64,000 nt of DNA from an uncultured bacterium (lineage in GTDB: Bacteria; Desulfobacterota_D; UBA1144; Nemesobacterales; UBA2774), in contig CAWGRW010000009.1 of the NCBI GenBank assembly GCA_963825135.1, positions 1,152,001-1,216,000 on the forward strand, written 5' to 3'. Position 1 is the first letter of the stretch; every line of letters begins with the position of its first letter. The position numbers and the translations under genes are program-made. The notes under the pieces were generated by a model that searched no databases, had not been told where the DNA came from, and saw only the letters and a program-made list of their open reading frames with translations. Positions 44,818-63,436 of the stretch are shown here, piece by piece.

Positions 44818-45243
44818 ATGAAAAGAAACGGTTCTGCGGTATGGAAAGGAGACCTCAAAAGCGGTCAGGGTACGGTATCGACAGAGAGCGGCGTGCTCTC
44901 CGACACTCAGTATTCGTTCAAGACCCGTTTTGAAGACGGGAAGGGCACTAATCCCGAAGAGCTGATCGCCGCGGCACACGCGGGCTGTTTCTCTATGGCG
45001 CTCTCCTCAGAGCTGGGCAAGCTCGGTGCGACCGCCGAGAGTATCAGGACGACGGCTACGCTCTCTTTCGAAAAAACGGACGCGGGGTTTACGATTACGG
45101 CCATTCATCTGAATACGAAGGCCAAGGTGCCCGGGGCGGATAAAGCGACGTTCGATAAGGCCGCTGATAACGCGAAGAAGGGCTGCCCCGTTTCCCGTGT
45201 CCTCAACGCCCAGATCACACTCGACGCGACGCTCGAGAGCTGA
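44818..45243 (+). CDS. osmC: OsmC family peroxiredoxin
   Basis: [21 protein letters not shown] and AKKGCPVS. Confidence 0.95.
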
Positions 45244-45303
45244 GAGTAACAGCCCGGCGCTATTGCCGTGATATTTTGATATATACGGTAAGGTCGGAAA
45301 GGA

Positions 45304-45337
45304 CACTTTGACTCCCCTGTGTAGCGGAGTCAAAGTG
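45304..45337. terminator. Perfect 12-bp inverted repeat between convergent genes
   Basis: cactttgactcc-N10-ggagtcaaagtg. Confidence 0.7.
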
Positions 45338-45357
45338 CGTTTTATAATTCCCGGGAT

Positions 45358-45732
45358 TTACCAAAGCCCTTGTATCGCTACACCGTTGTGCGCCGTCACA
45401 ACCTTGCACTTCCCCGCCCATTCTACCAATGCGCCTATGTCTGTCCACTCTTTCGGTGCCCTCTTCCAATGATCGTCGAGGCCAGCCTGTTTCTCGTACA
45501 ACTCGTCCAAAACGAACATAGTGTTGCCCGTCGGCGCCGAGGTCGGATCCAAAGGATTCGCCAGTTCCGGCCCTTTGATGATGTTATAACGAAGCATCGC
45601 TAATTCGCCCGTCCTGTGATGCGTCGCCTCCATCCATTTAGCGTGGCTTGCGAAAATTCTCTCTCCCTCGGCTACATGCTCCTTGGGGCATATAAACGTA
45701 ATGGTAATCTGTGTTTTGCCTATAGTAGACAT
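45358..45732 (-). CDS. Hypothetical protein, possibly ABM-like dimeric alpha-beta barrel
   Basis: AAGGAGG RBS; FVLDELYEKQAGLDDHW resembles the ABM E.Y/W......H pattern. Confidence 0.6.
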   Translation of the reverse strand: MSTIGKTQITITFICPKEHVAEGERIFASHAKWMEATHHRTGELAMLRYNIIKGPELANPLDPTSAPTGNTMFVLDELYEKQAGLDDHWKRAPKEWTDIGALVEWAGKCKVVTAHNGVAIQGLW

Positions 45733-45987
45733 ATACACACCTCCTTAATAGGTTTTTTGATTATTCTTATATATACGTCGAGCAAAGTAATACGGTTTGC
45801 CCGAATCATACCGGTATATATGTACATACAACACAAATTGAGCTTATTTGTCAATGAGCAGCCTGTAGGAATCGTGAAGCGAAATCATTACAATCGGTTG
45901 GTCGAAATTTTAGAGAGTTGATTATTGTGAATACCGGTAAGCTTAAACCGGTCAAAATCATCTCCGGAATAGCGGGCCCGTGAAGAA

Positions 45988-47532: not shown

Positions 47533-47592
47533 AACCTCTAAAGACCCCTGCTTTGTACGCTTCGAATAAATATCCCAATATTTATTCGGGAT

Positions 47593-48594
47593 TCATATTA
47601 AACCGTTTGCTTCGTACCATTCATATGTTTTTTTCAGCCCTGTCCTTAAATCTGTCTTGGGTTGGAAACCCAGCTCCCTTTTCGCTTTTGATATATCAAA
47701 AGCCCTGTTACTTCTGAAGAATTCAATCCTCCTTGGATATATGGGCGGATTTATATTCAGCGGTTTAAACGCCCATTCGCAAGTTTTAGCAAGGTAGTAA
47801 ACCGGGAGAAATGGCAAACGGAAACCTGGAATATTTACACCAAGAATATTTGAAATAATTGATACAAGCGCGTTGAGCTTCACAAATTCATCAGATCCAA
47901 GAATATATATATTCCCTGCTGCTTCCTCCCTCTTTCCGCATAGAAGAATGCCTTCTATCAGATCATCGATATAAATCATATGATATTGCACATCGCCGGA
48001 GCCTAACATTACGAAATAACGTTTTTTTATCGCCCGGAAAAGCTTCAAAAATCTGAGATCTCCGGGGCCATAAATACCGCAAGGCCGAAAAATTACTATG
48101 GGCAATTTATTTTCTCTTGAGTACCCGGAAACTATTCGCTCGCCTTCGACTTTGGAAAGTTGGTAATCATCCTTAGGCGAGAAGTGGGAATTCTCATCGG
48201 CAGAGGCCGTTAAAACAGACCCATGAACCCCTACGGTGCTGCAATGAACAAATCTCTTAACCCCTTCCTCAAAAGCGGCTTTCAGTATATTCTTGGTACC
48301 GGTTACATTAGTTTCGAATAGATCCTTTTTATTCAGGTTATCACGCCAGGCCGCAGCGAGATTAAAAACAATATCAATCCCGATCATAGCTCTTTGAAGG
48401 GAGTAGAAATCCCTTAGATCCCCGATCGCCGTTTCGAAGCCTTTCGTTTTGAGTTGCTCTGCTTTTTGCGGATTTCTGACAAGGGCTCTAACGGTATAGC
48501 CATCGTATTGCAGGCGTTCGCAAAGATTACTGCCTAAAAAACCCGTGGCGCCGGTAACTAACACTTTCATATTTTCAGGCCTAGTGTAAACCAA
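47593..48594 (-). CDS. NAD-dependent epimerase/dehydratase (extended SDR)
   Basis: VLVTGATGFLG, HCST, YQLSK and IYGPGD. Confidence 0.9.
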   Translation of the reverse strand: MVYTRPENMKVLVTGATGFLGSNLCERLQYDGYTVRALVRNPQKAEQLKTKGFETAIGDLRDFYSLQRAMIGIDIVFNLAAAWRDNLNKKDLFETNVTGTKNILKAAFEEGVKRFVHCSTVGVHGSVLTASADENSHFSPKDDYQLSKVEGERIVSGYSRENKLPIVIFRPCGIYGPGDLRFLKLFRAIKKRYFVMLGSGDVQYHMIYIDDLIEGILLCGKREEAAGNIYILGSDEFVKLNALVSIISNILGVNIPGFRLPFLPVYYLAKTCEWAFKPLNINPPIYPRRIEFFRSNRAFDISKAKRELGFQPKTDLRTGLKKTYEWYEANGLI

Positions 48595-48633
48595 TTTTAT
48601 CTGAAAATCTTTAATCCCGTTTTAGCGCTGTGC

Positions 48634-49584
48634 CTAAGATGTCTGAATTGTTTTTCTCGCTTCAAATAACCCTCCGACCATGCCTGGAATGACGTTGATA
48701 ATTGCAAATACGATTATCGAATACGCGAATGCATCGTTATTGTTAACCCCAAAAGCACCCAATAGGAGAATGAAAGAGCTCTCTCTCAAACCCAGTCCCG
48801 ATATCGAAATGGGGATCATAGTCACCAGCACTACCACGGACCTTATCCATCCCAAAGCGACGAAGGGAACATTTGCATCTATCGATAGTAGAATCAGGTA
48901 ATAAATAATGAGGCTGATCAGCTGTGAGATTACAGAAACTATTACCATTATGGCGACTGATGAAAACGGGACTTTTCCGAGAGTAGACAGGTTCTTGATG
49001 GACTTATTTAATCTGGGCGATTCGTACACCCTATTCGCAAGCTCGAGGAGTTTTCCTATTGCTCTATGGTCTCTATCAAAGAATATCAAAAAACATAAAG
49101 CCGCAAGCCCTGCCAGTATTGAAACCATTACAAGGACCAGCAAATAGGAATCCTTAGGAAAGCTCATAACCCAAAAGAGCAGGCCGACTGCGCAGAGCGC
49201 GATAGTCGCGAATACCCGGTCTAACGCTAAAGCAACCAGAGCTTCCGATAGTTTATTGTCCTTGCCGGAGAGCTTGTAGAATTTTATCGCACCCCCCGTC
49301 AGATTCCCGCCGGGAAGGAAAAGGCCGTAAAACACAGTGCTGAGGTTAATCTCGAATGCCTGAAATGTGGTTATGTTCAGGCCCTGACGAGCTGAGAAGA
49401 ACTTGAGTCTATACGAAGCAATAAGCCATACAACAAAATCTAAAACGAGGGCGAATATCAAATAAACATGGTTTGCGGACAGGATCGAGCTTTTTACGTC
49501 GGAAAGATTGATTTTAGACAAAAGGTATAAAATAATTGCGAACGCAACGGCAAATCTAAGGATAATCCATATTCTTTTTTTCAT
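48634..49584 (-). CDS. Lysylphosphatidylglycerol-synthase TM / flippase-like membrane protein
   Basis: FLPGG..GG, LDRVF and IPISISGLGLRE motifs; multi-TM. Confidence 0.82.
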   Translation of the reverse strand: MKKRIWIILRFAVAFAIILYLLSKINLSDVKSSILSANHVYLIFALVLDFVVWLIASYRLKFFSARQGLNITTFQAFEINLSTVFYGLFLPGGNLTGGAIKFYKLSGKDNKLSEALVALALDRVFATIALCAVGLLFWVMSFPKDSYLLVLVMVSILAGLAALCFLIFFDRDHRAIGKLLELANRVYESPRLNKSIKNLSTLGKVPFSSVAIMVIVSVISQLISLIIYYLILLSIDANVPFVALGWIRSVVVLVTMIPISISGLGLRESSFILLLGAFGVNNNDAFAYSIIVFAIINVIPGMVGGLFEARKTIQTS

Positions 49585-49702
49585 GTATCGATACGCAGCC
49601 GCCCTGAGAACCGGATAGATACGCTATGTCCTCATCTGCAATAAGACTACTTGCTCGACAGGGAAAGCCTCGATTAATTTAGCCTTACCTTACCTTGTTA
49701 CT

Positions 49703-50917
49703 TTAATTGTGGAAAGCGCACTTCCCCTTTAAGTATGACGGTCGTTCACACCCGAGCAGGTCAAGCACCGTCGGAGCGAAATCTATAGTCTCGATCTCTT
49801 TTTTATCGGCTTTATACCTGTCGTCCGTGAGGATTAACAAACCCTTTTCGGATTCGTTTTCCGGCAGGTAACCGTGATACCCTCTGTATACCGGGTCGTT
49901 GAGCCTTTTCCTCTGCTGCCCGTTTGTGACTCCGAGATATAAATTTCCTAACGGCTGATAGAAATCGTTCGGGAAGAAAATATAGCCGGGATTCAATATA
50001 AGATAGTATTCGCCGCACCTGTCGTTTTCGAACCTAACATTATATTTGTGTAAATCGTCGTACCTCATAAGATTTCCGTTTTGGATCCCAGAAAGATAAT
50101 GCAGGAGCTTTTCCCGTGCGGTGTCCGTATGGAACCAGAACCTCGCCTTGGACGCTTCTATATAATAGGTGATTTCATGATTTTTTATCCCGAGCTCTTC
50201 CATTTTTTCGATCAAATTGAACGTACCTTTGACGGCTTCCTGACCATGGTCTGACAGGATAAGCAGAGTCGCACCGTTCTTAATGCACAGGGAGTGAAGC
50301 TTTCTCATAAAGTCATCGAGCTTTTTAAAGATCTGGTTGATTTTTTCATTATCGTCTAGGTTCCAGTGCTCGAGTGTATCGATAGCGTGTGTTTGTATCA
50401 TTTCCAGTCTCTTGGAATGATTGAAGAGGCGGGACAGTACCTCTTCCAGACGGTCGAGCCTGCTGTTGAAAAAGTAAGTGCAATTATCCTCTCCAATCAT
50501 GCCGAGGAACGTATCATGATCGTTGAGTTTTTGATAATGTTTTAAATCTTGTTTCATGTACTTAGTCTTAAAAATTTCAAACCGTTTCCTCCGCCAGGGC
50601 GGTATAGATGCCAGATCGTAAGAACCTGTCACCATGTGGGCGAAACACTGCGCAGTTGTTGTGGCTATGTCGGGCAGATATTCATATGGCGCTTTATTAT
50701 CGAGGTTAATATCCGACTTTAGTCTGACCTGCCATATCTCATGCTCATGAGGATATAGACCGGTGTAAAGACTCGGTATGAGATCGACCTCGGGGAACGT
50801 ATTAATTCTCGTCCACGGATATTTATCAATGAGACCGGTCATGTAGGGCGTATTTGCATGATCCAATCTTCTTAGGTCGAGCGCAGTTGCATAAAAAACC
50901 ATTAATTTGTCGATCAT
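49703..50917 (-). CDS. Alkaline phosphatase superfamily (nucleotide pyrophosphatase-like) protein
   Basis: LYTGLYPHEH, ILSDHG, RGYHGY and IDFAPTVLDLLG. Confidence 0.75.
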   Translation of the reverse strand: MIDKLMVFYATALDLRRLDHANTPYMTGLIDKYPWTRINTFPEVDLIPSLYTGLYPHEHEIWQVRLKSDINLDNKAPYEYLPDIATTTAQCFAHMVTGSYDLASIPPWRRKRFEIFKTKYMKQDLKHYQKLNDHDTFLGMIGEDNCTYFFNSRLDRLEEVLSRLFNHSKRLEMIQTHAIDTLEHWNLDDNEKINQIFKKLDDFMRKLHSLCIKNGATLLILSDHGQEAVKGTFNLIEKMEELGIKNHEITYYIEASKARFWFHTDTAREKLLHYLSGIQNGNLMRYDDLHKYNVRFENDRCGEYYLILNPGYIFFPNDFYQPLGNLYLGVTNGQQRKRLNDPVYRGYHGYLPENESEKGLLILTDDRYKADKKEIETIDFAPTVLDLLGCERPSYLKGKCAFHN

Positions 50918-50986
50918 CTTGCCTGTCCTCTTCGTCCGTTGATTTATACCATTTATTCCTTATATTCGATTAAAGTAGAGCCTCGA

Positions 50987-51712
50987 CTATACATTCTTCA
51001 CAGCCTTCATTACTATCGGGTTACCAAATAGATTTGTAATATGCAGGATTCTGAATATTTCTTCAATTTTGATTGATATTGCCGGGCGATTAACCCAGCG
51101 GTGAAAAGCCAGAGGCATAAAAAATTGTTTCTCGGCGTGAATAGCTTGAAACCCGTTTTTCCTTATTTCCTCTGACGCTTCCCTCAGTGAGATAATATTA
51201 TAGACTCTTGTTTCGGGCAAGAACAGCTTAATTAATCTCTTGAGCAGTATGTCCGCGCCGGCAAAACTAAAGATAGACGGAAAGTCTATAACGAATTCCC
51301 CGCCCGAGACTCTGCAAATCTCCCGAACCCCCTTCCTCCAATCGCGGAGGTGCATGAGCATCCTCGAAGAAACGACACAGTCAAAGGCACCGTCTTTAAA
51401 TGAGAGCAGGTACGCATCACAAACTACCGCCTTTATGTTCAATCCCAGCTCATCAGCCTTTACCTTCGCAACCCCGAGCATCTCCGGCGACATATCAGAC
51501 GCTATAACCTCCTTCGATGCGAGGAGTAAAGGGATTGTGAGCTTTCCGGTCCCGGCCCCCAGATCCAAAATAGCAATGTTTACAGGGCCTACTAATGAGA
51601 GAAACGTGGATGCTTCGAGGCCCTCCAGGTAACGTCCAAAACGACTGCCGTACCTGTCCCCGTCGAACCTCCGGGCGACGTTTTCATTCCGGTAATAAGA
51701 GGCTTTATTCAT
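50987..51712 (-). CDS. Class I SAM-dependent methyltransferase
   Basis: ILDLGAGTG, SDMS, FDCVVS and LMHL. Confidence 0.88.
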   Translation of the reverse strand: MNKASYYRNENVARRFDGDRYGSRFGRYLEGLEASTFLSLVGPVNIAILDLGAGTGKLTIPLLLASKEVIASDMSPEMLGVAKVKADELGLNIKAVVCDAYLLSFKDGAFDCVVSSRMLMHLRDWRKGVREICRVSGGEFVIDFPSIFSFAGADILLKRLIKLFLPETRVYNIISLREASEEIRKNGFQAIHAEKQFFMPLAFHRWVNRPAISIKIEEIFRILHITNLFGNPIVMKAVKNV

Positions 51713-53388
51713 ATTGAGTAAGGTGCGAAAAATTTTGAACGAATCTCGTTCTTTTCTTCTTTAACCCTTAATTCGCCCCAGCCGAGCTCCCGTGCCATGA
51801 TTTCGGCGTATTCGTCCAGGTTGCTTTTTATGTTTGCGATGTTTAAGCAAAGATCGGTTCGCCTGAAAACCACGTCGCTCAATTTCCCGGCCATTTCTTC
51901 TTTAATTGCATAAATGATCCGAGCTTTGATCACGGACCGCCCGTCAAACATTTCTGATTCGCGTTCCCGCGCGGGGTCCGCGCATTTTAGGACTTCTCGA
52001 TAAGATGAGCCATATGCATATATGAGCTTCCGGATGAACGACGGGTCTAATCTCGGGTCGTTCTTCATTATCTCCTCATTGATATAATGCTCCGGCTCAC
52101 CGTACCCGGCGCAGCTCAAGACGGTAGATTCGGTTTTTGAAGGACAGTGCGCCTTGCCCATTTTTCTTAATACCGTATCTATGGTTTTTTCGGCGACAAT
52201 CCTGGCGTCGCTAAGTTTGACGCCGATTACCGAGATCAGGCCCTTCATCCCCCGCTCCTGTCCATGGTCGAGGATGCGATTATTATTTTCGATTCTTGCG
52301 CGACCGTTACCGTCGATCCGGGTGGGTATATAACCTCCGTAAACGAACGCGATATTTTCCATCTTCAGGGAAGCGGAAGGAAATGAATCATTGATCTCGT
52401 TTAAGAAAGAGCTTGATTCCTCTTCCGTGATATAAAAATTATCGGGTTCCGATGACGATGTCAGATGTTCGGTCCCTATCAGAGATCTGGTATTCCACGG
52501 CGTTATGAATAAATACCTGGAATTCCGCGAAAGCAAGCCGGCTGTATCCCTGTTTTGAATTCTTCTATAGAGTCCCAGGGCATACCCGGAGGTCAATTGG
52601 CGATCAACGAGCAGGTTAAACGCCCTCGAAATTCCGTATTGCCTGGTGGAGGCGTTATTACCCAAACGGTTAAGCAAGCCTATTAGCCACGGGCCTGACG
52701 CGTTCACTATGAATCTGGCGCGAATCTCGAAATTGTCCCCTGTAAGATTGTCTTTAACCTTGGCTCCCCTTACCCCCGTATCGTCTTTCAGTAATTCAAC
52801 GACCTCGAGGTAATTCGCGAGGTCGGCTCCCTCCTTGGACGCGGAAACCGCAAGCTCCAGGGTAAATCGCTCCGAGTCGGATAACTGGCAGTCGGTGAAG
52901 ACTATCCCTCCTCTGAGGTTATTATGCTCAAGGCCCGGGATAATTTCCATGCACTCTTTTCCCGACAGGGCCCGGTTCTCGAACTTCACGCTGTACATGC
53001 TCCGGGTTCCGGTAAGTCCTGAGCCGAGCAGGTTATAGACTCTGACCGCGGCGGCCAGAGATTCTTTTCTCAGGATATGATTCCCGTAGACGGGGATCAT
53101 TACCGGCATCGGGCGCACCAGGTGCGGAGCCATATTCATGAAAATAGCTTGTTCCCGGATGCATAGTCTGGCGTTCCTGAGATCAAATGAACGGAGGTGC
53201 CTAAATCCTCCGTGTATTATTCTCAGGGAGTTCGAAGAAGTACCGCTTCCGAAGTCCGATTTGTCAGCGAGAGCCACCGACAACCCCCGAAGCGCTGCGT
53301 CCCACGCCAGGAAGAGCCCGAATATCCCGCCCCCGATGACAAGAAGGTCGTACTCTTTTTCGGATAGTCGGTGCAATTCCCTCTTCAT
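51709..53388 (-). CDS. FAD-dependent glycerol-3-phosphate dehydrogenase/oxidase-like protein
   Basis: DLLVIGGGIFG..AWDAALRGL, DFGSGTSSNSLRIIHGGFR, VNASGPW and LSDVVFRRT. Confidence 0.85.
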   Translation of the reverse strand: MKRELHRLSEKEYDLLVIGGGIFGLFLAWDAALRGLSVALADKSDFGSGTSSNSLRIIHGGFRHLRSFDLRNARLCIREQAIFMNMAPHLVRPMPVMIPVYGNHILRKESLAAAVRVYNLLGSGLTGTRSMYSVKFENRALSGKECMEIIPGLEHNNLRGGIVFTDCQLSDSERFTLELAVSASKEGADLANYLEVVELLKDDTGVRGAKVKDNLTGDNFEIRARFIVNASGPWLIGLLNRLGNNASTRQYGISRAFNLLVDRQLTSGYALGLYRRIQNRDTAGLLSRNSRYLFITPWNTRSLIGTEHLTSSSEPDNFYITEEESSSFLNEINDSFPSASLKMENIAFVYGGYIPTRIDGNGRARIENNNRILDHGQERGMKGLISVIGVKLSDARIVAEKTIDTVLRKMGKAHCPSKTESTVLSCAGYGEPEHYINEEIMKNDPRLDPSFIRKLIYAYGSSYREVLKCADPARERESEMFDGRSVIKARIIYAIKEEMAGKLSDVVFRRTDLCLNIANIKSNLDEYAEIMARELGWGELRVKEEKNEIRSKFFAPYSI

Positions 53389-53392
53389 CTTC

Positions 53393-54157
53393 TTATTTAA
53401 TTACCTTCGCGATCAGGTGGTGCCCGACACCCTTAACGAGTTTTCTTGGGATTAGATTGAAGGCCGGAACAAAAAGATAGTTGTATAAGTATGAGGTGGC
53501 GCCCCTGTTTAATTTAGTTTTAACCGGATACCGGTCTGTAACAATCTCAAGCCTTGAGAAACAACTCAACAGCCCACGGAGCTGATTTATAGAATACTGT
53601 CTGAAGACTGGGGCGTCGTCTCTCATCAGTCCGATATTAAAAGTCGTGTGGAGAAAGTTCAGCCACGAATCAGAGTGATATACGACAAGACACGCCTCAC
53701 CGCCCGGTTTAAGAACCCGGTGCATTTCCTCTACCATCCTTTTAGGGCTCGGCGTGTAGGAAAGGGGTGAGTGAGAGTAAATCGCATCGAAGCTGTTGTC
53801 TCCAAAATTTAAATCCTCTCCGTTCATTTGAAGAACCTCTCCGGAAATCCTTTCAAGCTCCAAATGTTTTCTCGCCAGCGCTACAGCAAAATCCGTAAGA
53901 TCCACCCCTGTAACTATCGCTCCCCCCTTGGCAAAACTAATAAGATCGGTACCGAAACCACAGCCCACTTCCAATAATTTCTTTCCTTTATAACCGTCAA
54001 AGTCAACGTGCCTTTTCAGGTAATTGAGCTTTTGATAATGATACTTCTCGACGTCGCGAAAGAATTCGACAGTCCCCGGAGGGTCTTTTGACACTTCGAA
54101 CTCGTGCGGTTTCTTAGTCCAGTATTCCCTTACAAGATCTATTTGAGTTTGTTTCAT
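53393..54157 (-). CDS. Class I SAM-dependent methyltransferase
   Basis: LLEVGCGFGTD, GVDLT, SFDAIYS and HRVLKPGG. Confidence 0.9.
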   Translation of the reverse strand: MKQTQIDLVREYWTKKPHEFEVSKDPPGTVEFFRDVEKYHYQKLNYLKRHVDFDGYKGKKLLEVGCGFGTDLISFAKGGAIVTGVDLTDFAVALARKHLELERISGEVLQMNGEDLNFGDNSFDAIYSHSPLSYTPSPKRMVEEMHRVLKPGGEACLVVYHSDSWLNFLHTTFNIGLMRDDAPVFRQYSINQLRGLLSCFSRLEIVTDRYPVKTKLNRGATSYLYNYLFVPAFNLIPRKLVKGVGHHLIAKVIK

Positions 54158-54215
54158 TTTTTTCGCCCGCGCATGCTGCTGGGTAATATTATTTCAAAAT
54201 TGAAGCGTGATCGAA

Positions 54216-55403
54216 TCATCTCATTATAGGGCTCTCTGATGTGATAAGGTCGAGTATTTGTCTGACCTTTTCTATTTTTTCTTCGGAACTGTAATTAGTT
54301 TCAAAATATCGCTTGGACCTTGTACCCAGTCCTTCAGCATAAGAAGGATCGTCCAGGAGCGAGATTACACCGTACGCAATTGATTCGGGGCGAGGATCGA
54401 CCAAAACGGCTATTTCGTTATTTAGAATTTGAGTGTGCGCTTCAATGTTTGTAGCCACTATCGGCTTTCCCGATTGCATGTAGTTGTAGATTTTCAGGGG
54501 AGGGTTAGTGCCTGTAATCCTCGTGGATATCAGAACATCGGCAATGTTTACAAACGCCGGCAGCGCCTCTACGGGTAACGACCCGGTAAAATGAAAATTA
54601 GATATAATCCCGAGCTGTTCAATGAGCTTACTCAGGCTTTTAATCTGCTGAGGTCTGCCGCCGATTAGAACGAACAGTACGTCATCCCTTTGTTTTGCTA
54701 TCAGATTTGCGGATTCGATGAGAAGCTCCAGTCCCTGATAAACTTCGAACGTCCCCGCGTATAATACTATTTTCCTGCAGGCTATACCAAGCTGGGGAAG
54801 CTCGACAGAAGTCAAACCCAGGTTACTGATATCCGGGGAATCGGGTGTCGGACCGTTCTCTATCATTACACTAGCCACCCTGTCGTTGATTCTCCTGACA
54901 TAATTATCCAGCATCGGGGAGACGGTAATGACGCCATGGCTTGAATTGATTACCCACCTTTCAATTAATTCGAGCATAGATATTATGGGGGAATAGCCGG
55001 AATACCCGAAATTTCTCATAGCCTGCGGAATGGAAGAATGAAAATCATACAGGTGTCTGACTTTGAAAATTTTAGAGAGCGCCACACCGAATATAGAAGC
55101 CTCTTCATGCGAATGCAGAAGGTCGTACCGGTTCTTTATCAAGATGCGGACCGCTTTAATAATAACGAAAGCGTCGAGAAAGATTTTATTTATAGAAGGT
55201 CCCACGGCTACTTCTTTAATAAACGGGAAATTCATTATGCGGTGAATTCTTACGCCGGGAATTATGACGTCCTCTCCCAAATGATATGTTATGACGTCCA
55301 CCTCATGTCCGAGTTCGGAAAAAGCCGCCAGCCTGGATTTGATAGCGATAGGCGTACCGCGCGGAGAAAAAAAGGGCTGTGGCGCTAACATTAATATTTT
55401 CAT
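54216..55403 (-). CDS. Glycosyltransferase family 4
   Basis: APQPFFSPRGTP, LYAGTFEVYQG and PLKIYNYMQSGKPIVAT. Confidence 0.9.
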   Translation of the reverse strand: MKILMLAPQPFFSPRGTPIAIKSRLAAFSELGHEVDVITYHLGEDVIIPGVRIHRIMNFPFIKEVAVGPSINKIFLDAFVIIKAVRILIKNRYDLLHSHEEASIFGVALSKIFKVRHLYDFHSSIPQAMRNFGYSGYSPIISMLELIERWVINSSHGVITVSPMLDNYVRRINDRVASVMIENGPTPDSPDISNLGLTSVELPQLGIACRKIVLYAGTFEVYQGLELLIESANLIAKQRDDVLFVLIGGRPQQIKSLSKLIEQLGIISNFHFTGSLPVEALPAFVNIADVLISTRITGTNPPLKIYNYMQSGKPIVATNIEAHTQILNNEIAVLVDPRPESIAYGVISLLDDPSYAEGLGTRSKRYFETNYSSEEKIEKVRQILDLITSESPIMR

Positions 55404-55440
55404 GATTCAGGATTGGATCACCGGGCCCGGGGTTTCCCTC

Positions 55441-56421
55441 TCATTTCCTCGAATTTGTCTCTAAAACTTTCCTTATCATGTAAGTGGGTTTATTTTGGGT
55501 TTCATAGTGACTCCTTACGACGAGTTCACCCAATAATCCCATCGTGCCGAGCTGCACGCCGAATATAATTAAAAGCACCGCCATTAACAGGAGCGGTCTC
55601 TCCGCCAGGGGATGGCCGAAAAATATTTTGAGAAAGGATAGGTATGTAGCTATAACCAATCCCGAGAAGAGCGATGCAATCCCGAGCAAGCCGAAAATCC
55701 TGAGGGGGCTGGTAGAATAGCCTAAAAGAAACTTGACCGTGATCAAATCCAATATGACTCGCGGAGTCCTCATTATCCCGTACTTGGACTTGCCTGAATT
55801 TCTCCGCAGATGTTTTACCTCCACCTCGCCCACACTGACCCCCATCCAGCTTGCTATTGCCGGAATGAATCTGTGCATTTCGCCGTAAAGTTTTAAATTT
55901 TTAACTATCTCGCTTTTGTACGCTTTCAAAGAGCAGCCATAGTCGTGAAGCTCGATCCCCGTGATACGTGAGAGAATGAAATTTGCAATGCGGGAAGGCA
56001 ATTGTCTCGTTAGCGGACCATCGGCTCTGTATTTACGCCAGCCGCTGACGATATCGTACCCCTTCTCCATCTCCGCCAGCAGATTCGGGATGTCCGCCGG
56101 GTCGTTCTGCATGTCGCCGTCCATCGTCACGATAACGGCGCCCCTTGCCCGATCGAAGCCCGCTGTGAAGGCCGGGGTCTGGCCGAAGTTTCGGCGGAGG
56201 CTGATTACTATCAGGCTCGGGTCGCCCGATTGTAGTTTATTCATTATTTCGAAGCTGTTATCGGTGCTCCCGTCATCGACCATGATGATCTCGTAATTTC
56301 TCTTTATCTTATCGAGCGTCTCCTTCAGCTTATTGAATAGCGGAATAATATTCTCCGCTTCGTTAAATACGGGGATAACTATCGATAGCTCAACATCATT
56401 TACAGTCATGGTAGAGACCAT
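55441..56421 (-). CDS. Glycosyltransferase family 2, polyprenyl-phosphate glycosyltransferase (ArnC/GtrB-like)
   Basis: SIVIPVFNE, VDDGSTD, RNFGQ, MDGDMQNDP and HRFIP; two C-terminal TM helices. Confidence 0.92.
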   Translation of the reverse strand: MVSTMTVNDVELSIVIPVFNEAENIIPLFNKLKETLDKIKRNYEIIMVDDGSTDNSFEIMNKLQSGDPSLIVISLRRNFGQTPAFTAGFDRARGAVIVTMDGDMQNDPADIPNLLAEMEKGYDIVSGWRKYRADGPLTRQLPSRIANFILSRITGIELHDYGCSLKAYKSEIVKNLKLYGEMHRFIPAIASWMGVSVGEVEVKHLRRNSGKSKYGIMRTPRVILDLITVKFLLGYSTSPLRIFGLLGIASLFSGLVIATYLSFLKIFFGHPLAERPLLLMAVLLIIFGVQLGTMGLLGELVVRSHYETQNKPTYMIRKVLETNSRK

Positions 56422-56864
56422 TTTATCTTGATTGCTCCCGATTTGAAAGTGCGGGGGGTCGCGGGGTCGAATTCCGGCATGAGACGATCCCTCTTGAGCT
56501 ATACATGGTAATCACTTGCGGGAAAAGACTCGCGCGGACTTAACTAATGCTGAATATTGAGTGAAACGATGGCGGGCTTGGAGGAACGCAAAACCCTTCC
56601 GAATCGAATCAAACCCGCTGCCCGCATAAGGGGACATACAACTCCGCGCCCGCCCGGAATCGCACCAGGTGTACTCGGCGAATTCCCTACTTACGGGTCA
56701 CAAATCGTAAGGCTCAAGGGACAGGTCAGCTTGCTGATTAATCCGGTGTCTGTTGGCAGAAGTCTCCGGATCGTACGGCCTCTTAGACGTTATGCCGGTC
56801 GTTGTAAACACGCCGGCAGTCGGTTACCTTCACTTTTAAGTAATGCCAAAACTGGAGGTAAATC

Positions 56865-57479
56865 ATGCGCTCTGATATTCGTGAAGGTTTGCGGTTTCCC
56901 GACTATGAACTGCCTGACCACTCAGGCGACACGCGGAAGCTCTCGGACTTGCAGGGGAGCAACCCCTTGGTGCTCCACTTGTCGCGGGGCGGGTTCGACC
57001 CCAAGGAGCACAGATACCTCCGCCGCCTGGTCGACTCGTGGCCCGACTTCAAAGCCGCCTATACGCGAATCGTCGTGATATCGACGGATAACCAGCTCGA
57101 GATTAACGAGTTCCGCGACAGTCTGGGGGCGGAGTTCCCTTTCCTGTCCGACCCGGGTCGAAAGATTCAGAAGGACCTCGATATCCAGGAATACACCGAT
57201 CCGGTGCACGACCCTATGATTCCGCATACTTTCGTTCTCGAGCCCGGTCTGATTATCTCCAGGATTTATAACTGCTACTGGTACTGGGGCCGTCCCACGA
57301 TATCCGAACTGCACATCGACCTGCGGGCCGTATTCCGAAAAGTCCGTCCGGACTTCGACCTCAGCGCTCCCGGCCTGCGAGAGGCGTGGGAACGCGGCGA
57401 CCGGGATCAGTTCCTGGTCGCCCCGATCGAAAAAGCCATCCGCTATACCGAGGGGACATCGATAGGCGTCAAGCGGTGA
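56865..57479 (+). CDS. Redoxin (AhpC/TSA-like) domain protein lacking the expected active-site Cys
   Basis: FPDYELPDH..KLSDL, RGGFDPKE, VVISTD and FPFLSDP; GGAGG RBS. Confidence 0.75.
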   Translation: MRSDIREGLRFPDYELPDHSGDTRKLSDLQGSNPLVLHLSRGGFDPKEHRYLRRLVDSWPDFKAAYTRIVVISTDNQLEINEFRDSLGAEFPFLSDPGRKIQKDLDIQEYTDPVHDPMIPHTFVLEPGLIISRIYNCYWYWGRPTISELHIDLRAVFRKVRPDFDLSAPGLREAWERGDRDQFLVAPIEKAIRYTEGTSIGVKR

Positions 57480-57481
57480 GT

Positions 57482-58357
57482 TTAGGCAGCCTTCTTCCCG
57501 GCCGCGGTATTCTTGTCGAGAAATCGTTCGATGTGGCCGGCAATGACATCTACGTGCGATTCGAGCGTAAAGTGTCCGCCGTCGAGTAAATGGACCTCGA
57601 TATTCTTCAAATCCCGCTTGTATGCGGTTCCGCCTTCGTTGGTGAAGAATATGTCATTTGTTCCCCAAGCCACCAGGGTAGGAGGCTGGTGCTTTTTGAA
57701 GTAGGCTTGCAAGCCCGGATACCCTTTCAAGTTGTTTTGATAATCGTAGAGTAACTCGATCTGTATATCGACGCGTCCCGGTAGATTCAAGTAATAGAGA
57801 TCCATATTCCAGGCATCGGGGCTGACCTTTGCGGGGTCGGGCTCTCCGTTTACGTAAAGATACTTCACCGTGTCATGAGTAAGCACTTCCCTCAGGGGCT
57901 TTTCGGTACTTTCGTTCCTGTTTTTCCATAGCTCCCTTACAGGATCGAAGCCTTTTCCGATGCCCTCCTCGTAAGCGTTCGAGTTTTGAATTATCAGGGC
58001 CTCTATCCACTCCGGATGCCTGGCCGCGATACGAAATCCCACGGGGCCGCCGTAGTCCTGGACGAACAGACTGAATGTGCTGAGCCCGATCTTCCGTATG
58101 AACTTCTCCATCACCTCGGAGAGATTATCGAAGCTGTATTCAAACTTGTCCACGGGAGGACTGTCGCTGTTGCCAAAACCGGGATAATCCGGCGCGACGA
58201 GATGGAACTTCCCGGACAAAGCCGTGATCAGGTTCCGGTAATAGTGGGACGACGAGGGAAATCCATGCAGCAATAGAATGGTCGGGGCGTCCTTCGGTCC
58301 CGCCTCCCTGTAAAATATTTCAAGCCCGTCTACTGCAATCGTACGATAATCCGTCAA
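57482..58357 (-). CDS. Alpha/beta hydrolase (epoxide hydrolase/dehalogenase-like)
   Basis: LLHGFPSS, APDYPGFG, QDYGG (Asp nucleophile) and GGHF; TTG start after GGAGG. Confidence 0.9.
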   Translation of the reverse strand: MTDYRTIAVDGLEIFYREAGPKDAPTILLLHGFPSSSHYYRNLITALSGKFHLVAPDYPGFGNSDSPPVDKFEYSFDNLSEVMEKFIRKIGLSTFSLFVQDYGGPVGFRIAARHPEWIEALIIQNSNAYEEGIGKGFDPVRELWKNRNESTEKPLREVLTHDTVKYLYVNGEPDPAKVSPDAWNMDLYYLNLPGRVDIQIELLYDYQNNLKGYPGLQAYFKKHQPPTLVAWGTNDIFFTNEGGTAYKRDLKNIEVHLLDGGHFTLESHVDVIAGHIERFLDKNTAAGKKAA

Positions 58358-58552
58358 TATAGCCTCCGCTGTTCAGTATTTAAAGAGTATTAGACGCAGT
58401 GGTTATGCCGAGGGATCCAGGTTATTTTTTTCCGCTTCATGGAGATGCCCCCCATGAGTAAAATTGAGACTGTCAAAAAAGCAGGTCCTGAATGTATACA
58501 TGCGGATTGTACAATCCCTAATCGTTTCAGAAGTTAACAAAATCCCGCATAC

Positions 58553-58597
58553 GGATTCCTGATCCCGGAGTCGGAGGTTCGAGCCCTCCCGGGGACG
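58553..58597 (+). pseudogene. 3' half of a tRNA (Arg-CCT-like), probable att-site remnant
   Basis: gga-ttcctga-tcc anticodon arm, ggagg-ttcgagc-cctcc T arm and cggggac-g acceptor strand; no D arm or 5' acceptor strand upstream. Confidence 0.75.
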
Positions 58598-58977
58598 CAA
58601 TGGTCTAATGTAGTTACAGCGCCCCGGGAGTGAATGAACACAGGGCACTCGATAACATGACGCCTGAGGAGTATGTGAAAAAGCACGTAAAGACATCAGA
58701 AATCTCTAATTCACACGGTAGAGCTTTTGGGTGAGGCCCAAAATATGTAAAACCTGACTTAAATCATGGACCTCTTACAGGGGAGCAGGACGGAGAACTG
58801 GTCTTGACACGGGGCTCTTTTTTTGAGATAGTAGGACTAGAAAAGGTTCATGCGTAAAATGGATTTATTTTGTTGCGGGCACGAAAGTTAGCATAGTAGT
58901 TTTTGCGGAATCTTTAGTACTTGGCCCGTCCAAATGACTGTCGTTCCGATGACATTAACACAATAAAGGAGAATGCC

Positions 58978-59295
58978 ATGAAGTACATGATCAGCTGGTT
59001 CGAGCGCCCGCAAGGTTCGCCTGCGGAGTACGAGAACGCCCAGAAGCGCATACTCGAAGTGTTCACTCAATGGAAGGCGCCCGACAATTTCAATATCGAA
59101 TTGTTCGTAGTGCGGGTCGGTGAGTGGGGCGGGCATTTGTTGGTGGACTGCGACGATCCCCTGGCTATTCACAAATTTTGTTCGACCTGGCCTGCTTTCG
59201 AATTCCAGGCACGGCCCGTGATTCCCGTGGAGGACGCTGTCCGCGTCGAGCTCGAGGCTATGGCCTGGCGGGATAGTCTGAAGAAAGGCAAATAA
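58978..59295 (+). CDS. DUF3303 family protein
   Basis: MKYMISWFERPQGS..QKRIL..W..P pattern; AAGGAG RBS; TTGACA (58804), 17 bp, GATAGT promoter candidate upstream. Confidence 0.7.
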   Translation: MKYMISWFERPQGSPAEYENAQKRILEVFTQWKAPDNFNIELFVVRVGEWGGHLLVDCDDPLAIHKFCSTWPAFEFQARPVIPVEDAVRVELEAMAWRDSLKKGK

Positions 59296-59316
59296 AGCGG
59301 CTATTTCCTTCGGCTG

Positions 59317-59796
59317 TCAATATGGCGTTCCGTCTTTGTGGACGAACTTCCACTTACCCTCCGCTAGCGAAGCCGCGAGATCGTCGTCGGGGTAGTGTCC
59401 TTCATCTCCCGGCGTTCTGTCGCCCACTTCGAGGTACACGACGTCCTCAGCGGTTTCGTTGATCAGATGGTGACCGTTGCCTGTGCCCGCTTTGAAACCT
59501 GCGCACATTCCCGGAGAGAGCACCGTATGACCTTCGTCCGTGTGTAATGTCGGACTACCCCGCAAGACGTAAATGAACTCGTCTTGTTTGGTGTGATAGT
59601 GACGGATAGACGAGATTGCATTGGGCGCCAGGCGTGTGAGGTTGACGCCAAAGTTGGTAAGGCCGAACAAATCTCCTAGCGGCCGTTTCTCCCTGCCCGT
59701 CATCTGTGAAGCGAATGGCTCAGGGTAGTTTGACGGCTTGGTCCGTGCGGGCGCCTCAGCCGCATCGACGGCGACAGGCCTTGTTTCTTGTGACAT
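59317..59796 (-). CDS. Cupin domain protein
   Basis: GLTNFGVNL, SIRHYHTKQDEFIYVL, GFKAG..NGHHLIN and YPDDDL; CAGGAGG RBS. Confidence 0.9.
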   Translation of the reverse strand: MSQETRPVAVDAAEAPARTKPSNYPEPFASQMTGREKRPLGDLFGLTNFGVNLTRLAPNAISSIRHYHTKQDEFIYVLRGSPTLHTDEGHTVLSPGMCAGFKAGTGNGHHLINETAEDVVYLEVGDRTPGDEGHYPDDDLAASLAEGKWKFVHKDGTPY

Positions 59797-60022
59797 ATAT
59801 GCCTCCTGATCCTGCATGGTGAGTTTCGGCGTATCCGGTTCCATCTTCATTTTTTGAATCCGGGTTCATCACATATCTGACGTCTGTAATCGGCTAATCG
59901 ATGAACTCTCGAAGCAGACACGTAAATCTTAGCAATAATTATATCCTTTGGTCAAATCGGCCAGGCGGATCGATGCCGGTCGAGTTATTTCCTTTGCTGC
60001 TTTACGGTTACATCGCCTGGTG

Positions 60023-60071
60023 CAATGGCGGGCGATGGGGGACTCGAACCCCCGGCCTCAGGCTTCGGAGG
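60023..60071. repeat. 49-bp perfect direct repeat of the tRNA-Arg(CCG) 3' part (att site); partner at 62281-62329
   Basis: caatggcgggcgatgggggactcgaacccccggcctcaggcttcggagg is identical at both positions. Confidence 0.97.
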
Positions 60072-60187
60072 ACGCGAGCAAACTAGTAAAGCGTAATATA
60101 CATTCGTATTGAATCTCAGCAATCACAGAATGTTGAGTTGTTTTTCTACGCAACACCAATTTATACAGAATGGTGAATAACGGCACA

Positions 60188-60211
60188 ATATGGACACTTA
60201 TATGGACACTT
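60188..60211. repeat. Tandem 12-bp repeat ATATGGACACTT x2 (arm-type site candidate)
   Basis: Perfect tandem copies; related TGGAC boxes at 62193 and 62206 near the other end. Confidence 0.7.
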
Positions 60212-60270
60212 CCATTTTAATGCGTGGCCGAGCTTATGGTGTACTTACGCCAGATGTCCTTCACCACTCG

Positions 60271-60984
60271 TTATGCTGCGTTGTCGTTTGGTGTAACCAT
60301 GCAAAGAAACGCAACCCTTTTGTAAAAGGCCAAAACCCAAGCACTCATTGTATCGTGGCCTTGAACCCGTTGAAACCAATATGCAAAGACGTTTTCACCG
60401 AACACATTCGGTGAATTTCGTGTCACCTTATCGAAGATGTCAAGGACCCGCACCGTGGCATCGGAGTCGATGTTTGTAAGGCCCGCCGCAGAATAAGCGG
60501 TGACGTGAAAGTATTCGGGAATACGTTTGCCAAATTCGTGGAAATACAAACCGGTTGTGATTCTTGCGGCCACACGATCGAGACGGGAGAGATCGACATC
60601 ATATCCAGGTGCAGTTCCGAGGTAGATTCCACCAGCAGATAAGAGATCAAGATTACCCATGCTATTGAAGAATGCTTGCTGGAATCCCTTCTTCGATGGT
60701 TTTTGTAGGGATCGGTAGATCGAAGGCAGAATTGCTTTGACGGCGGGATGATCACCTGTATCGTGGCGCATGGAAATCACGAGCCGGAAGTATTCGTCGT
60801 CTCTGGATGCACCTTCGTTGCAAGATCGGCAACTGGGAACAGTGATCAGATTCGACGGTCTCGGTTTCGGAAAGAGAGTTTTCGGCGGAATGTGATCGTC
60901 GGTCAACGCTTCCGCACTACCGCAATAAACGCAAAAATAATTCGTAACATTGGGTCCGTCATATGTGTTGACTACCATTTTCAT
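60271..60984 (-). CDS. HNH endonuclease with a zinc finger and C-terminal extension
   Basis: CVYC..TDDHIPPK..LITVPSCRSCN..SRDDEYF. Confidence 0.85.
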   Translation of the reverse strand: MKMVVNTYDGPNVTNYFCVYCGSAEALTDDHIPPKTLFPKPRPSNLITVPSCRSCNEGASRDDEYFRLVISMRHDTGDHPAVKAILPSIYRSLQKPSKKGFQQAFFNSMGNLDLLSAGGIYLGTAPGYDVDLSRLDRVAARITTGLYFHEFGKRIPEYFHVTAYSAAGLTNIDSDATVRVLDIFDKVTRNSPNVFGENVFAYWFQRVQGHDTMSAWVLAFYKRVAFLCMVTPNDNAA

Positions 60985-61912
60985 ACTCTTGATCTATCTC
61001 TCCTAATAGTTCTAAAATATATGAATGTTTGTTAGATAAAAAGCTTGCGAAAATATAAGCATCTTTTTCAGACAAGGTACTCTTCTCGCCGTCTTCAAAG
61101 AAGGATTCAAGCTTTCTAATTGGATAGAGAACGTCGTCTATACCGTGGATAAATACATCGTTTGCGGGATATTCTCCTCTTTCTTTGAGCTTTTCTATTA
61201 GCTTGTTGTAACGATCATGAATAAGCTTCAAGCAAATAGCCCCAATCTTCCTATTTGAAGTTGTAAGAATGCCATCAAATACCTTTTCAAATTCGTAACT
61301 CATACCATGAGGGAGCAAGTTGACCAATTTTTCCATGCGAAACTTCTCCTTGTGTGCTTTCTCTTCCGCTTCCAATCTGCCCGTTAACGTGAACAGAATC
61401 GAGGAAATATATTTTCTTTGCTCGGCTACCCATCTAGGAATGTTGATGTCCCTATGCTCGGAGGTGCCATCGATGTAAAAAGAAAAGATACTAAAGCCGG
61501 CCGGACCCAGCGACGCTCTTGAGATATAATGATAGGAGATAGGCTTCGATTTTGTCTTGGCCCGTTTTGTGGGATGTCCAACAGCATCGTTCCGTATCCT
61601 ACGAATCTCTAATAGTATTGGGTAGTTGTTAATCTTCTCTGAAATTGCAAGCGATTCGCAAAGATTGTCAACTGCATCTTGCTGGACATACATTGCTTGG
61701 AGAAGCCCATAGACCGTAAGGTAGTAAACTGCCGTGCTATCTCCAAACTCCTTTGCCTCGAAAGCGGTAATCGCTTCTTCCGTGTCTCCGATCACATCAA
61801 GCGAACTGCAAAGTTGAGAAAACAACGGTTTGTTCTGTCGTAACTCATAATGCATTCGCGGATCGTTTATATGCTCGCGAATTTGTTTTATCCGGTTTTG
61901 AACTGGATTCAC
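60959..61912 (-). CDS. Hypothetical protein with a HEPN-like RNxxxxH motif (probable GTG start at 61912; ORF extends to 62011)
   Basis: Sequence looks largely helical; IRRIRNDAVGHP at 61594-61574; stop overlaps the HNH start. Confidence 0.65.
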   Translation of the reverse strand: MNPVQNRIKQIREHINDPRMHYELRQNKPLFSQLCSSLDVIGDTEEAITAFEAKEFGDSTAVYYLTVYGLLQAMYVQQDAVDNLCESLAISEKINNYPILLEIRRIRNDAVGHPTKRAKTKSKPISYHYISRASLGPAGFSIFSFYIDGTSEHRDINIPRWVAEQRKYISSILFTLTGRLEAEEKAHKEKFRMEKLVNLLPHGMSYEFEKVFDGILTTSNRKIGAICLKLIHDRYNKLIEKLKERGEYPANDVFIHGIDDVLYPIRKLESFFEDGEKSTLSEKDAYIFASFLSNKHSYILELLGEIDQEYENGSQHI

Positions 61913-62283
61913 GTTTTCAGCCCTATCTTTGTGAGAGACGTTAAATATTTCTAAGCGCTTTACTTGCTGATTATACGAAATATTTCCATCTAACCAGATT
62001 AAGAATAACAAAATTTGTAGATTTTATCTAACGTCTGTTATCTCTTTATAAGCTTTTCATGATAAGCCTGTGATAGTAGCGGACATTCCATATGGATGTA
62101 TTGATAGATGACATGGATGGTACGCGCTCAGGCGGTTCTATAAGCCGTCATCATCAATAGTGTGTATCGATAGATATACGACATGTGAATTGTGGACGCC
62201 CTGCGTGGACACTAGTATTAATATCACCACCCTCGTGTAAACAAAATACTCGATGTAATTAACTCTAAGCATTGAAAAAACAA

Positions 62284-62359
62284 TGGCGGGCGATGGGGGA
62301 CTCGAACCCCCGGCCTCAGGCTTCGGAGGCCTGCGCTCTATCCACTGAGCTAATCGCCC
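62284..62359 (-). tRNA. tRNA-Arg(CCG), CCA encoded
   Basis: GGGCGAT/ATCGCCC acceptor stem, CAGGC-CTCCGAA-GCCTG anticodon arm and GGGGG-TTCGAGT-CCCCC T arm; 76 nt. Confidence 0.97.
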
Positions 62360-63152
62360 GGTTTTGAGATTCCAAGCTCCTTCATCACTACCTGCATATC
62401 TTCCCAGAGCGGCTTCTTGAAATTCGGGTTCCTGAGAAGGGCCGCAGGATGATAAGTTACCATAAGTTTCGCCCTTCCGTATTGATGGAACTTCCCCCGG
62501 AGGCTCCCGAGGCTCTGCTTCGTTTTAAGTATGGACTGCGCGGCCGTGCTCCCTAGGCACACTACGACCCCGGGCTCTATCGACCTTATCTGCTTGAATA
62601 GGAACTGCTCGCAGGTCGCCATCTCGTCGGGCTCTGGAGTCCTGTTCTCGGGCGGGCGGCACTTCACCACGTTGCATATATATACGTCCTCTCTCTTTAG
62701 CCCCATCGCCTCTATTATCTTGGTGAGGAGCTGTCCCGACCTCCCCACGAACGGCGTCCCTGCAGGTCCTCGTCCCTCCCCGGCCCTTCCCCCACGAATA
62801 CGAGCCTCGCCTTCGGGTTCCCTTCCCCGAACACCAGATTCGTCCTCCCCTCGTGGAGCTTGCACCGGGTGCAGTCCCCTATCTCCGCCCTTATCTCTTC
62901 GAGCGTCATCTTTTTAGCGGAGGCGTCGAATATGCCGATCTGCTCTTCTATTCTTATAACGTCGTCCTTTTTTTCGGGTGATGTCTGAGCTTTTGGTTGC
63001 GTCCTCACGGGTTCTTTCCCGGGCGCCTTCGGGATGGTCTCTTCCTTGGCCTTTTTTTCCACCGGCGCCCTCGCGACTCCCATGGATTTCTCAAATTCGA
63101 GACGCCTCTTCAAGTCCTCGATGATCCCTTTCAGCTCTGATTCACGGCTCAT
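62350..63152 (-). CDS. Family 4 uracil-DNA glycosylase (Fe-S type), frameshifted near 62757
   Basis: CTRCKL, VFGEG and FVGEGPG in the first ORF; PFVGRSG, NVVKCRPPENR and TYHPAALLR in the second. Confidence 0.9.
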
Positions 63153-63177
63153 ATCAGAATCCTTCTTTCTCTAACTT

Positions 63178-63301
63178 CCCTCTCCCCTCTGTGGAACGGC
63201 TGCAAGCGAGCGCGCAGTCGGACGCCCTATAACAAAGGCTCTGAAGCACCTTAACTCCCGGCTCAATGCTGCCCAAACCAAAGAGGGTCAGGGTGAGGGG
63301 G
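63178..63301. repeat. REP-like CCCTCTCCC...GAGGGTCAGGGTGAGGGG element with an internal spacer
   Basis: ccctctcccctctgtgg (63178-63194) and agagggtcagggtgagggg (63282-63300) are separated by about 87 bp. Confidence 0.45.
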
Positions 63302-63436
63302 TACATTAATATAATAAAACACGGTTTATGCCGAAAAATCCATATCCCGGAAATATACGTATTCTTTGTCCTATGCCTCCGGTTATGGTAAATATTTCTA
63401 TCCTTATTATAAACGGCCGGAGCCTGAGAGCACGCG

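Follow-up and report, generated by a model that had tools for sequence, protein, structure and literature searches.

Islands that are inserted into tRNA genes by tyrosine integrases often cross over in the region of the anticodon stem and loop, and the direct repeat that borders them is the 3' part of the tRNA. Integron cassettes rely on folded attC sites, an IntI-type integrase and an attI platform, and their cargo often consists of defence genes. For cis-mobilizable elements (CIMEs) and their accretion, the primary papers behind the reviews cited here are said to be Pavlovic 2004 and Bellanger 2011. According to the sections of these reviews used in this study, CIMEs and tandem accretion were defined for elements of the ICESt1/ICESt3 type in Streptococcus thermophilus, and a CIME is recognized by its attL and attR flanks, by the loss of the genes for integration, excision and transfer, and by its co-mobilization with a related integrase-bearing element after accretion (PMC5704250, PMC6323972). 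In the portion of the report on Prochlorococcus tycheposons drawn on here, successive integrations at a single tRNA displace the older units inward, resulting in islands whose units are split by partial tRNA copies and in which degenerate remnants and fragmented integrases lie scattered among defence cargo; tycheposons themselves are defined by a recombinase of their own and often by a replication module (bioRxiv 10.1101/2020.12.28.424599). Here we describe a 2.26-kb island in a tRNA-Arg(CCG) gene of an uncultured bacterium of the order Nemesobacterales, located in a window of 64,000 nt, i.e. the whole stretch of DNA analysed (C9:1152001-1216000 of genome G000, where C9 is contig CAWGRW010000009.1 and G000 is assembly GCA_963825135.1, comprising 17 contigs and 3.13 Mb and rated 94% complete). 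On balance, we regard this island as an element of the CIME type, namely an integrative island that has no integrase and has kept both recombination sites.

The island is bounded by two identical 49-nt copies at a distance of 2258 bp, which were detected by a repeat search and by pattern searches (exact or with up to three mismatches) and for which no match was obtained in 100 dinucleotide shuffles. Given the position of the intact tRNA-Arg(CCG) gene, the repeat starts at tRNA position 31 and ends 3 bp past the encoded CCA; it thus corresponds to the 3' part of the tRNA, beginning in the anticodon stem, as is typical of islands formed by tRNA-integrating tyrosine integrases. Nine other copies among relatives start at position 30 or 31. 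Inside the repeats, there are two overlapping, co-oriented open reading frames (ORFs) on the minus strand (Table 1), neither of which showed a recombinase domain in a domain scan or a transfer-related match in Pfam, NCBIfam or PHROGs. No integrase gene adjoins the tRNA in the window island, whereas the same tRNA has one in the relatives G020, G093 and G050, and none of the eight Phage_integrase (PF00589) matches in the genome falls inside the window. The initial annotation, made from the letters of the window, had described a perfect 49-bp repeat that begins at tRNA position 31, includes the CCA and 3 further bp, and encloses just two co-oriented genes and no integrase at a spacing of 2258 bp; with the tRNA placed by ARAGORN and Rfam, this description proved correct in every detail. 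An Rfam scan of the island returned only tRNA-derived pieces, and promoter and terminator counts were no higher than in shuffles. The G+C content is approximately 38-49% in the island, 52-58% in the right-hand flank (62.2-64 kb) and 52-57% in the 1 kb left of the distal repeat; similarly low values (42-47%) were observed in other nearby stretches at 47-51 and 54-56 kb.

The origin of the island can be read from its tRNA-proximal end. The first ~100 nt past the tRNA or core are alignable across four integrase-less elements (the window island, cassette 2 of G009, the cassette of G002 and the DNA behind the second copy in G007) and three integrase-bearing elements (G093, G050 and G006), with a mean column identity of 69% and an invariant GTGTCCA block; in the integrase-bearing elements, the aligned stretch is the 3' tail of the integrase gene. 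In the window island, this stretch contains 17 decayed codons of a tyrosine integrase followed by the stop codon, and GTGTCC starts 72 nt past the tRNA end, similar to the integrase-bearing relatives. Because the ~100 nt beside the tRNA share homology with integrase-bearing elements and terminate in the 17-codon integrase tail, they demonstrate a reduction, and the island would be the reduced descendant of an integrative element specific for tRNA-Arg. The option of a cleanly reduced island, put forward initially beside that of a cargo-only element mobilized in trans, is supported by these findings. Integrase remnants inside the element, as a sign of simple decay, had been named as an argument against the initial interpretation; a remnant is indeed present, but it is restricted to ~54 nt that double as a candidate arm and does not represent a decaying pseudogene, and no further remnant was detectable in the island by tblastn (E up to 10).

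The same GTGTCC motif connects the island with a specific clade of integrases. It is located ~50-90 nt past the tRNA 3' end in eight of the nine integrase loci that hold a tRNA (13 integrase loci examined); G093 and G050, two of these eight, sit at tRNA-Arg(CCG), and G020 is the exception. Among 38 flanks that follow a core copy, GTGTCC started at +68 to +78 in six, with ~0.002 expected per flank, in an interval that was picked after the data had been seen and with two of the six flanks belonging to homologous cassettes. The 3' tail of the clade integrases encodes the peptide ..(M/I)DTY(L/M)DTK.., and the DNA of this peptide is the tandem TGGACAC pair, which suggests that one of the candidate arms is a fossil 3' tail of an integrase gene. 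From this distribution, we infer that the GTGTCCA repeats in the proximal and distal ends are candidate arm-type sites of the integrase. The G020 integrase harbours the domains Arm-DNA-bind_2 (32.2 bits, cut-off 22), Int_N and Phage_integrase; Arm-DNA-bind_2 reached 21.8 bits (cut-off 22) in the G050 integrase and was undetected in the domain scan of the G006 and G093 integrases. Relatives of the G020 integrase (E<=1e-40) are present in 27 of the 101 genomes of the order. Close relatives with 61-100% identity stood directly beside tRNA-Arg(CCG) in three of 30 fetched loci (G020, G093 and G050), and other integrases of the clade adjoin tRNA-Gly, Leu, Ala, Met and further tRNAs.

At the distal end, the tandem pair TGGACAC-N5-TGGACAC is the single exact pair in the 3.13-Mb genome, in which the lone 7-mer occurs 141 times over both strands. 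An identical pair at an identical distance (-138/-126 from position 31) was found in the integrase-less RND island of G010, a member of another genus, and degenerate versions are present in G019; in G006:C159 and G007:C7, the pair lies ~130-150 nt from partial copies of other tRNAs. A short piece between the pair and the cargo genes matches DNA of G003 and G004 labelled as IS3-family transposase orfA by eye, without a family-library scan. Since this piece also stands beside the same pair in G006:C407, the distal end appears to be a shared piece of backbone. These properties of the two ends support the retention of both cores and both candidate arms by the island. The earlier notion of intact att sites, which was based on the 49-bp cores, is thereby extended by GTGTCCA-type repeats of the cognate integrase family on both arms. 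A contig from IMG/VR (L216, ~2990-3320) that matched the tandem-pair pattern was not used; it may represent an attP or a joint between stacked units. L216 carries a partial tRNA 3' half with a tandem GTGTCCA pair on both sides, the clade integrase was not found within 3 kb, and the neighbouring ORFs resemble, as judged by eye, a repressor and a transposase.

Table 1. Features of the window and of the second locus version on contig C7, with window coordinates where given.
Feature	Position	Strand	Remarks
Variable DNA between island and ancestral flank, ~15 kb	45244-60022		G006 has one gene (LigD_N) between tRNA and OsmC
Distal 49-bp core repeat	60023-60071		Identical to proximal copy; displaced tRNA 3' half
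Exact tandem pair TGGACAC-N5-TGGACAC	60191-60209	+	119 nt from distal core; read as distal arm-type sites
Short piece matching presumed IS3-family orfA DNA of G003 and G004	60228-60262		31 nt at 97%; beside same pair in G006:C407
Cargo gene 2, P0002	60271-60984	-	235-237 aa; N-terminal HNH-type nuclease motif, unnamed C-terminal domain
Cargo gene 1, P0001	60959-62011	-	ORF up to 350 aa; unnamed family; invariant R..R....GHPT motif, C-terminal helical bundle
Remnant of tyrosine-integrase 3' end, last 17 codons and stop	62187-62240	+	GTGTCCA-type site TGGACAC at 62206-62212; degenerate copy at 62192-62198
Proximal 49-bp core repeat	62281-62329		tRNA positions 31-76 plus 3 bp; repeat search and pattern search
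tRNA-Arg(CCG), intact, encoded CCA	62284-62359	-	ARAGORN; Rfam tRNA 73.3 bits; from position 31 on, forms the tRNA-proximal att core
C7 segment: 3-dmu-9_3-mt ('VOC') gene			161 aa
C7 segment: TIR protein			244 aa; full-length PADLOC ThsB match (E 9e-119); ThsA not seen on contig
C7 segment: Upx-type defence gene			3.9 kb; gene broken into at least 4 pieces

The tRNA-Arg(CCG) locus is a hotspot. The neighbourhood of the tRNA and a family-4 uracil-DNA glycosylase (UDG) gene is kept in 40 of 41 genomes searched. A second version of the locus was found in G000 itself on the 11-kb contig C7, the first 4567 nt of which share 98.0% identity with the tRNA plus right-hand flank, and which presumably derives from a co-assembled sister strain. 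Behind the tRNA (4491-10015), C7 carries quite different DNA that is divided into three segments by partial tRNA-Arg copies (Table 1), and near the last of these copies, tblastn gave a match of 24 residues with the catalytic part of the integrases (54% identity, E 0.002-0.25). Other segments bounded by partial tRNA copies are present in C7 and in nine of 20 relatives (G009, G003, G004, G007, G002, G020, G019, G010 and G028), the loci of which contain extra partial tRNA-Arg copies; the other 11 have none. In the window, C7 and the relatives together, 16 segments are bounded by tRNA-derived copies, and an integrase is present in a single one, the 8.3-kb segment next to the tRNA in G020. Beyond the window, this count refers to 105 greedily chosen ORFs (>=60 aa) from 13 loci that were scanned with Pfam, with seven further relatives' loci without extra partial tRNA copies (>=26 nt) left out. 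Programs that depend on an integrase to recognize islands would overlook 15 of these 16 segments. Other sibling cassettes carry a NotI-type restriction enzyme with a D12 methylase (G004), a homologue of pentameric ligand-gated channels, RND efflux genes and several unnamed proteins. The order in G020 is tRNA, integrase element, core copy and integrase-less cassette, which is an accretion state; the integrase-bearing element encodes UmuDC, SRAP and a DnaB-like/AAA_25 protein, and the integrase-less cassette begins with sequence resembling the tail of the resident integrase.

A clean pair of an empty and a filled site is provided by G005 and C7, given that the tRNA of G005 is directly followed by the sequence that lies after the last partial copy of the C7 array (96.0% identity over 973 nt). 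Furthermore, the VOC cassettes of C7 and G003 are 99.0% identical over 520 nt, whereas the UDG flanks of these two loci share 83.1% over 800 nt. This difference indicates that an integrase-less unit moved recently between species. The window island is complete in only one of the 101 genomes of the order, G000, and a 313-nt fragment of P0001 is present elsewhere in the genome of G050; the absence of the island from the other 100 genomes and from the co-assembled sister strain fits the recent integration that the perfect repeats had suggested.

In the congener G006, the tRNA is followed by genes for LigD_N, OsmC, NnrS, DUF5996 and PCuAC without an extra copy. In G000, these flank genes are located at ~41.8-45.2 kb of the window (OsmC gene at 44818-45243), which means that ~17 kb accumulated at the locus, just the last 2.26 kb of which are still bounded by repeats. 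Between 45 and 60 kb, we found no integrase and no partial tRNA copy beyond chance words of 8-13 nt (relaxed blastn-short), and the ~15 kb next to the island can therefore not be divided into units. The stretch at 45244-57480 is mostly a minus-strand block with a G+C content of 42-50% over most of its length, is not found at this position in G006, and encodes glycosyltransferases, PMT_2, an epimerase, LPG_synthase_TM, methyltransferases and a DAO oxidoreductase. For the arrangement of the window itself, no empty site was found, since the cupin and DUF3303 modules are placed elsewhere in congeners. These modules (59310-59968 and 58788-59291, respectively) are adjacent in the window, occur in swapped order in G002 (L063, G002:C14), there with a partial tRNA-Arg copy behind the cupin gene, and lie on separate contigs in G007; they move independently and without visible att copies. 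Upstream of the DUF3303 gene, ~70-90 nt (~58788-58873) recur at 78-85% identity on several contigs of G052, G050, G094, G003, G049 and G026, and once more in G000 (C9:150253-150294).

We hypothesize here that tRNA-Arg(CCG) underwent recombination, in the region of its anticodon stem and loop, with a tyrosine-integrase element of this family, which would have duplicated tRNA positions 31-76, and that the integrase and the remaining backbone were lost later. What would be left over are ~100 nt at the tRNA-proximal end, including the decayed 17-codon tail, and the distal arm, with an interior that now consists of two unrelated stand-alone genes for a putative HNH-type nuclease and an unnamed protein. 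Since the island has no recombinase, it could move by excision only with a borrowed integrase of the same family, acting either in trans or in cis, in the latter case after an integrase-bearing relative has inserted alongside and the pair excises together. Alternatively, the shared tRNA and att sequences may allow an exchange by homologous recombination. Judged from its cores and candidate arms, the window copy may still be excisable. With regard to the hallmarks of CIMEs, the attL and attR flanks correspond to the identical 49-bp cores with GTGTCCA-type sites on both arms, as in the integrase-bearing relatives; just the 17-codon tail is left of the genes for integration and excision; and transfer genes are lost from an island that comprises two ORFs only.

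Several observations weigh against an integrase-dependent mobility of the island. A candidate for the helper integrase postulated initially was found beside the same tRNA in G020, G093 and G050 but not in the assembly of G000, in which the clade integrase is absent (0 matches at E<=1e-40) at a completeness of 94% and the best tblastn hit is 32% identical and located beside tRNA-Met. The proximal sites are decayed, with one exact and one degenerate copy at a spacing of 14 nt instead of 12, and the integrase-bearing element of G020 at tRNA-Arg has no GTGTCC at all. Most of the sibling cassettes (the VOC and TIR cassettes as well as the cassettes in G004, G007 and G009) have no distal GTGTCCA pair. 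Completeness hence varies among the stacked units, whose exchange could be due to homologous recombination. In addition, no public run contained at least half of the sampled words of the stretch (best share 0.12), so that excision is neither shown nor excluded.

The main alternative is that the island is an inert scar, i.e. a dead remnant that no integrase can move, and that the differences at the locus arose by homologous recombination after uptake of related DNA, with exchange bounded on one side by the conserved tRNA/UDG flank and on the other by the partial tRNA copies of 40-49 bp or further flanks in common. The genome without a helper integrase, the partly decayed proximal sites and the many sibling cassettes without a distal pair are in line with this explanation, and the cupin and DUF3303 modules, found elsewhere or order-swapped in congeners with no att copy between them, point to general recombinational shuffling. 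Nevertheless, we consider such a scar somewhat unlikely, given that the distal partial tRNA copies are non-coding yet perfect over the aligned length in nine of 11 cases within the genus, whereas the flanks differ by 4-17%, that the arm motifs hold their spacing across different genera, and that the genome contains the distal pair in exact form and only once. An assembly artefact, in which the 49-bp repeat made the assembler join pieces of two co-occurring strains, is very improbable. Strain mixing is real, as demonstrated by the two locus versions on C9 and C7 (~98% identical over 4.6 kb), but the repeat measures just 49 bp within a 2.79-Mb contig, comparable bounded segments occur in nine other genomes, and a 158-nt contig from a public run spans 62229-62386 with one mismatch and joins island, core and tRNA body across the tRNA-proximal junction, although this run may be the source sample and is perhaps not independent. 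Four public runs, all available as contigs, yielded low-depth pieces of ~150 nt with an empty table of joints, and the far junction was bridged by no listed piece. Finally, it is scarcely credible that the HNH-type protein spreads the unit as a homing-type nuclease with an incidental tRNA repeat. The occurrence of both cargo families as solitary genes in many unrelated contexts and phyla speaks for it, but the ends of the unit are tRNA-derived cores and integrase-family arms instead of nuclease target duplications, and any tRNA was present in just three of 80 loci with a P0002 relative.

The island carries two genes whose ORFs overlap by 26 nt, which suggests co-expression of P0001 and P0002. 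Relatives of P0001 form at least 351 clusters (E<=1e-3) of proteins of ~312-320 aa. P0001 had no credible match in Pfam, NCBIfam or PADLOC; the rows obtained were a single one from Pfam (E=0.14) and two weak ones from PHROGs (E 0.0035 and 0.015), the latter without an assigned function. None of 25 family members had a Pfam match, and a protein-atlas search returned unnamed clusters only. Its AlphaFold2 model reached a mean predicted local distance difference test score (pLDDT) of 81.6 and gave no match in the PDB with Foldseek at E<=0.001; with VIA-align, just generic helical bundles were matched over residues ~165-297 (Z up to 11.3, within the helical background), the fold searches being dominated by the C-terminal helical bundle. 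The signature of HEPN RNases is an Rx4-6H motif in the helical HEPN fold. The R-x5-H inside the R..R....GHPT motif of P0001 resembles it, and an identity as HEPN protein could not be confirmed. The P0001 relatives on metagenome contigs (L068-L079) are solitary genes between housekeeping genes, located after dnaX-ybaB-recR (twice) and in the dnaK/dnaJ and fusA/rpsJ intervals, and some lie near OLD-type and HepT/MNT genes; their solitary position suggests a selfish or defence-type single-gene module.

P0002 scored below the cut-offs of the Pfam models HNH (21.0 bits, cut-off 21.4) and HNH_5 (20.8 bits, cut-off 27.5), and its match to PADLOC models of the PDC-M01B/PtuB type is confined to residues 14-60. 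Its relatives form at least 291 clusters across many phyla, and 25 of them share invariant Y, C, G, D-H and C..C-N residues, which include the Cys pairs and D-H of the N-terminal HNH-type motif. A dedicated two-gene system was considered and dropped: no P0002 relative was present in 18 metagenome loci with a P0001 relative, and no P0001 relative in 80 genome loci with a P0002 relative, so that the pairing is local. From the domain content and the defence cargo of the sibling cassettes, P0001 and P0002 are probably defence-like.

In the right-hand flank, the UDG gene (62350-63152, minus strand) is split on C9 into the overlapping frames 62350-62865 and 62715-63152, which reflects a frameshift or else an indel of the assembly; in C7 and the other inspected relatives of the genus, a single intact ORF of 264-267 aa is present. 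The ~150 nt between UDG and leuS (~63165-63320) are a dispersed repeat with 72-80% identity to many sites in G000 and relatives of the genus.

Small gene packets stacked at tRNA genes are a known bacterial route of gene acquisition, and this kind of element is therefore not new. New is the link between an integrase-less unit and a specific integrase clade via a conserved arm sequence, the suggestion that one arm is a fossil integrase 3' tail, and the direct evidence for movement of a sibling cassette between species. The locus is a well-resolved example, from an uncultured lineage, of single defence-type genes that are parked and swapped at a tRNA gene without a recombinase of their own, and the candidate helper integrase clade and candidate arm-site motif make mobilization in trans testable at the bench. 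A more far-reaching idea, which we put forward as a quite doubtful speculation, is that tRNA-Arg(CCG) and the other tRNA genes served by the clade could act as an integron-like exchange platform within the order, where integrase-less cassettes, many of them for phage defence, would possess a minimal att site consisting of a tRNA half and GTGTCCA arms, one of which would be a fossil integrase tail, and where the integrases of transient elements would insert, excise and pass cassettes between species.

Compared with CIMEs as outlined in the consulted sections of the reviews, the window island is similar in that it appears to be derived by deletion from an integrative element and is located at a tRNA 3' end where further elements stack; the tandem of an integrase-bearing and an integrase-less unit was seen in the relative G020 and not in the window genome. 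It differs from CIMEs by its very small size (2.26 kb, two genes), by its host, an uncultured lineage, and by having no known conjugative parent, with no transfer genes detected in the integrase-bearing relative G020. The stacking at the tRNA-Arg locus matches the islands built by tycheposons, insofar as these are covered by the part of the report used here, whereas the window island itself has neither the tRNA-specific recombinase of its own that defines a tycheposon nor a replication module. The integrase and the DnaB-like/AAA_25 protein of the G020 relative can be set beside this definition. In contrast to integron cassettes, the recombination site consists of a tRNA 3' half with candidate lambda-style arms instead of a folded attC, and no IntI/attI platform was found, given that the 64-kb window has no tyrosine recombinase (PF00589) and that the boundaries are tRNA halves. 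What the locus shares with integron cassettes is its organization in arrays of recombinase-free units that comprise one or two genes, have a recombination site as boundary and often carry defence cargo.

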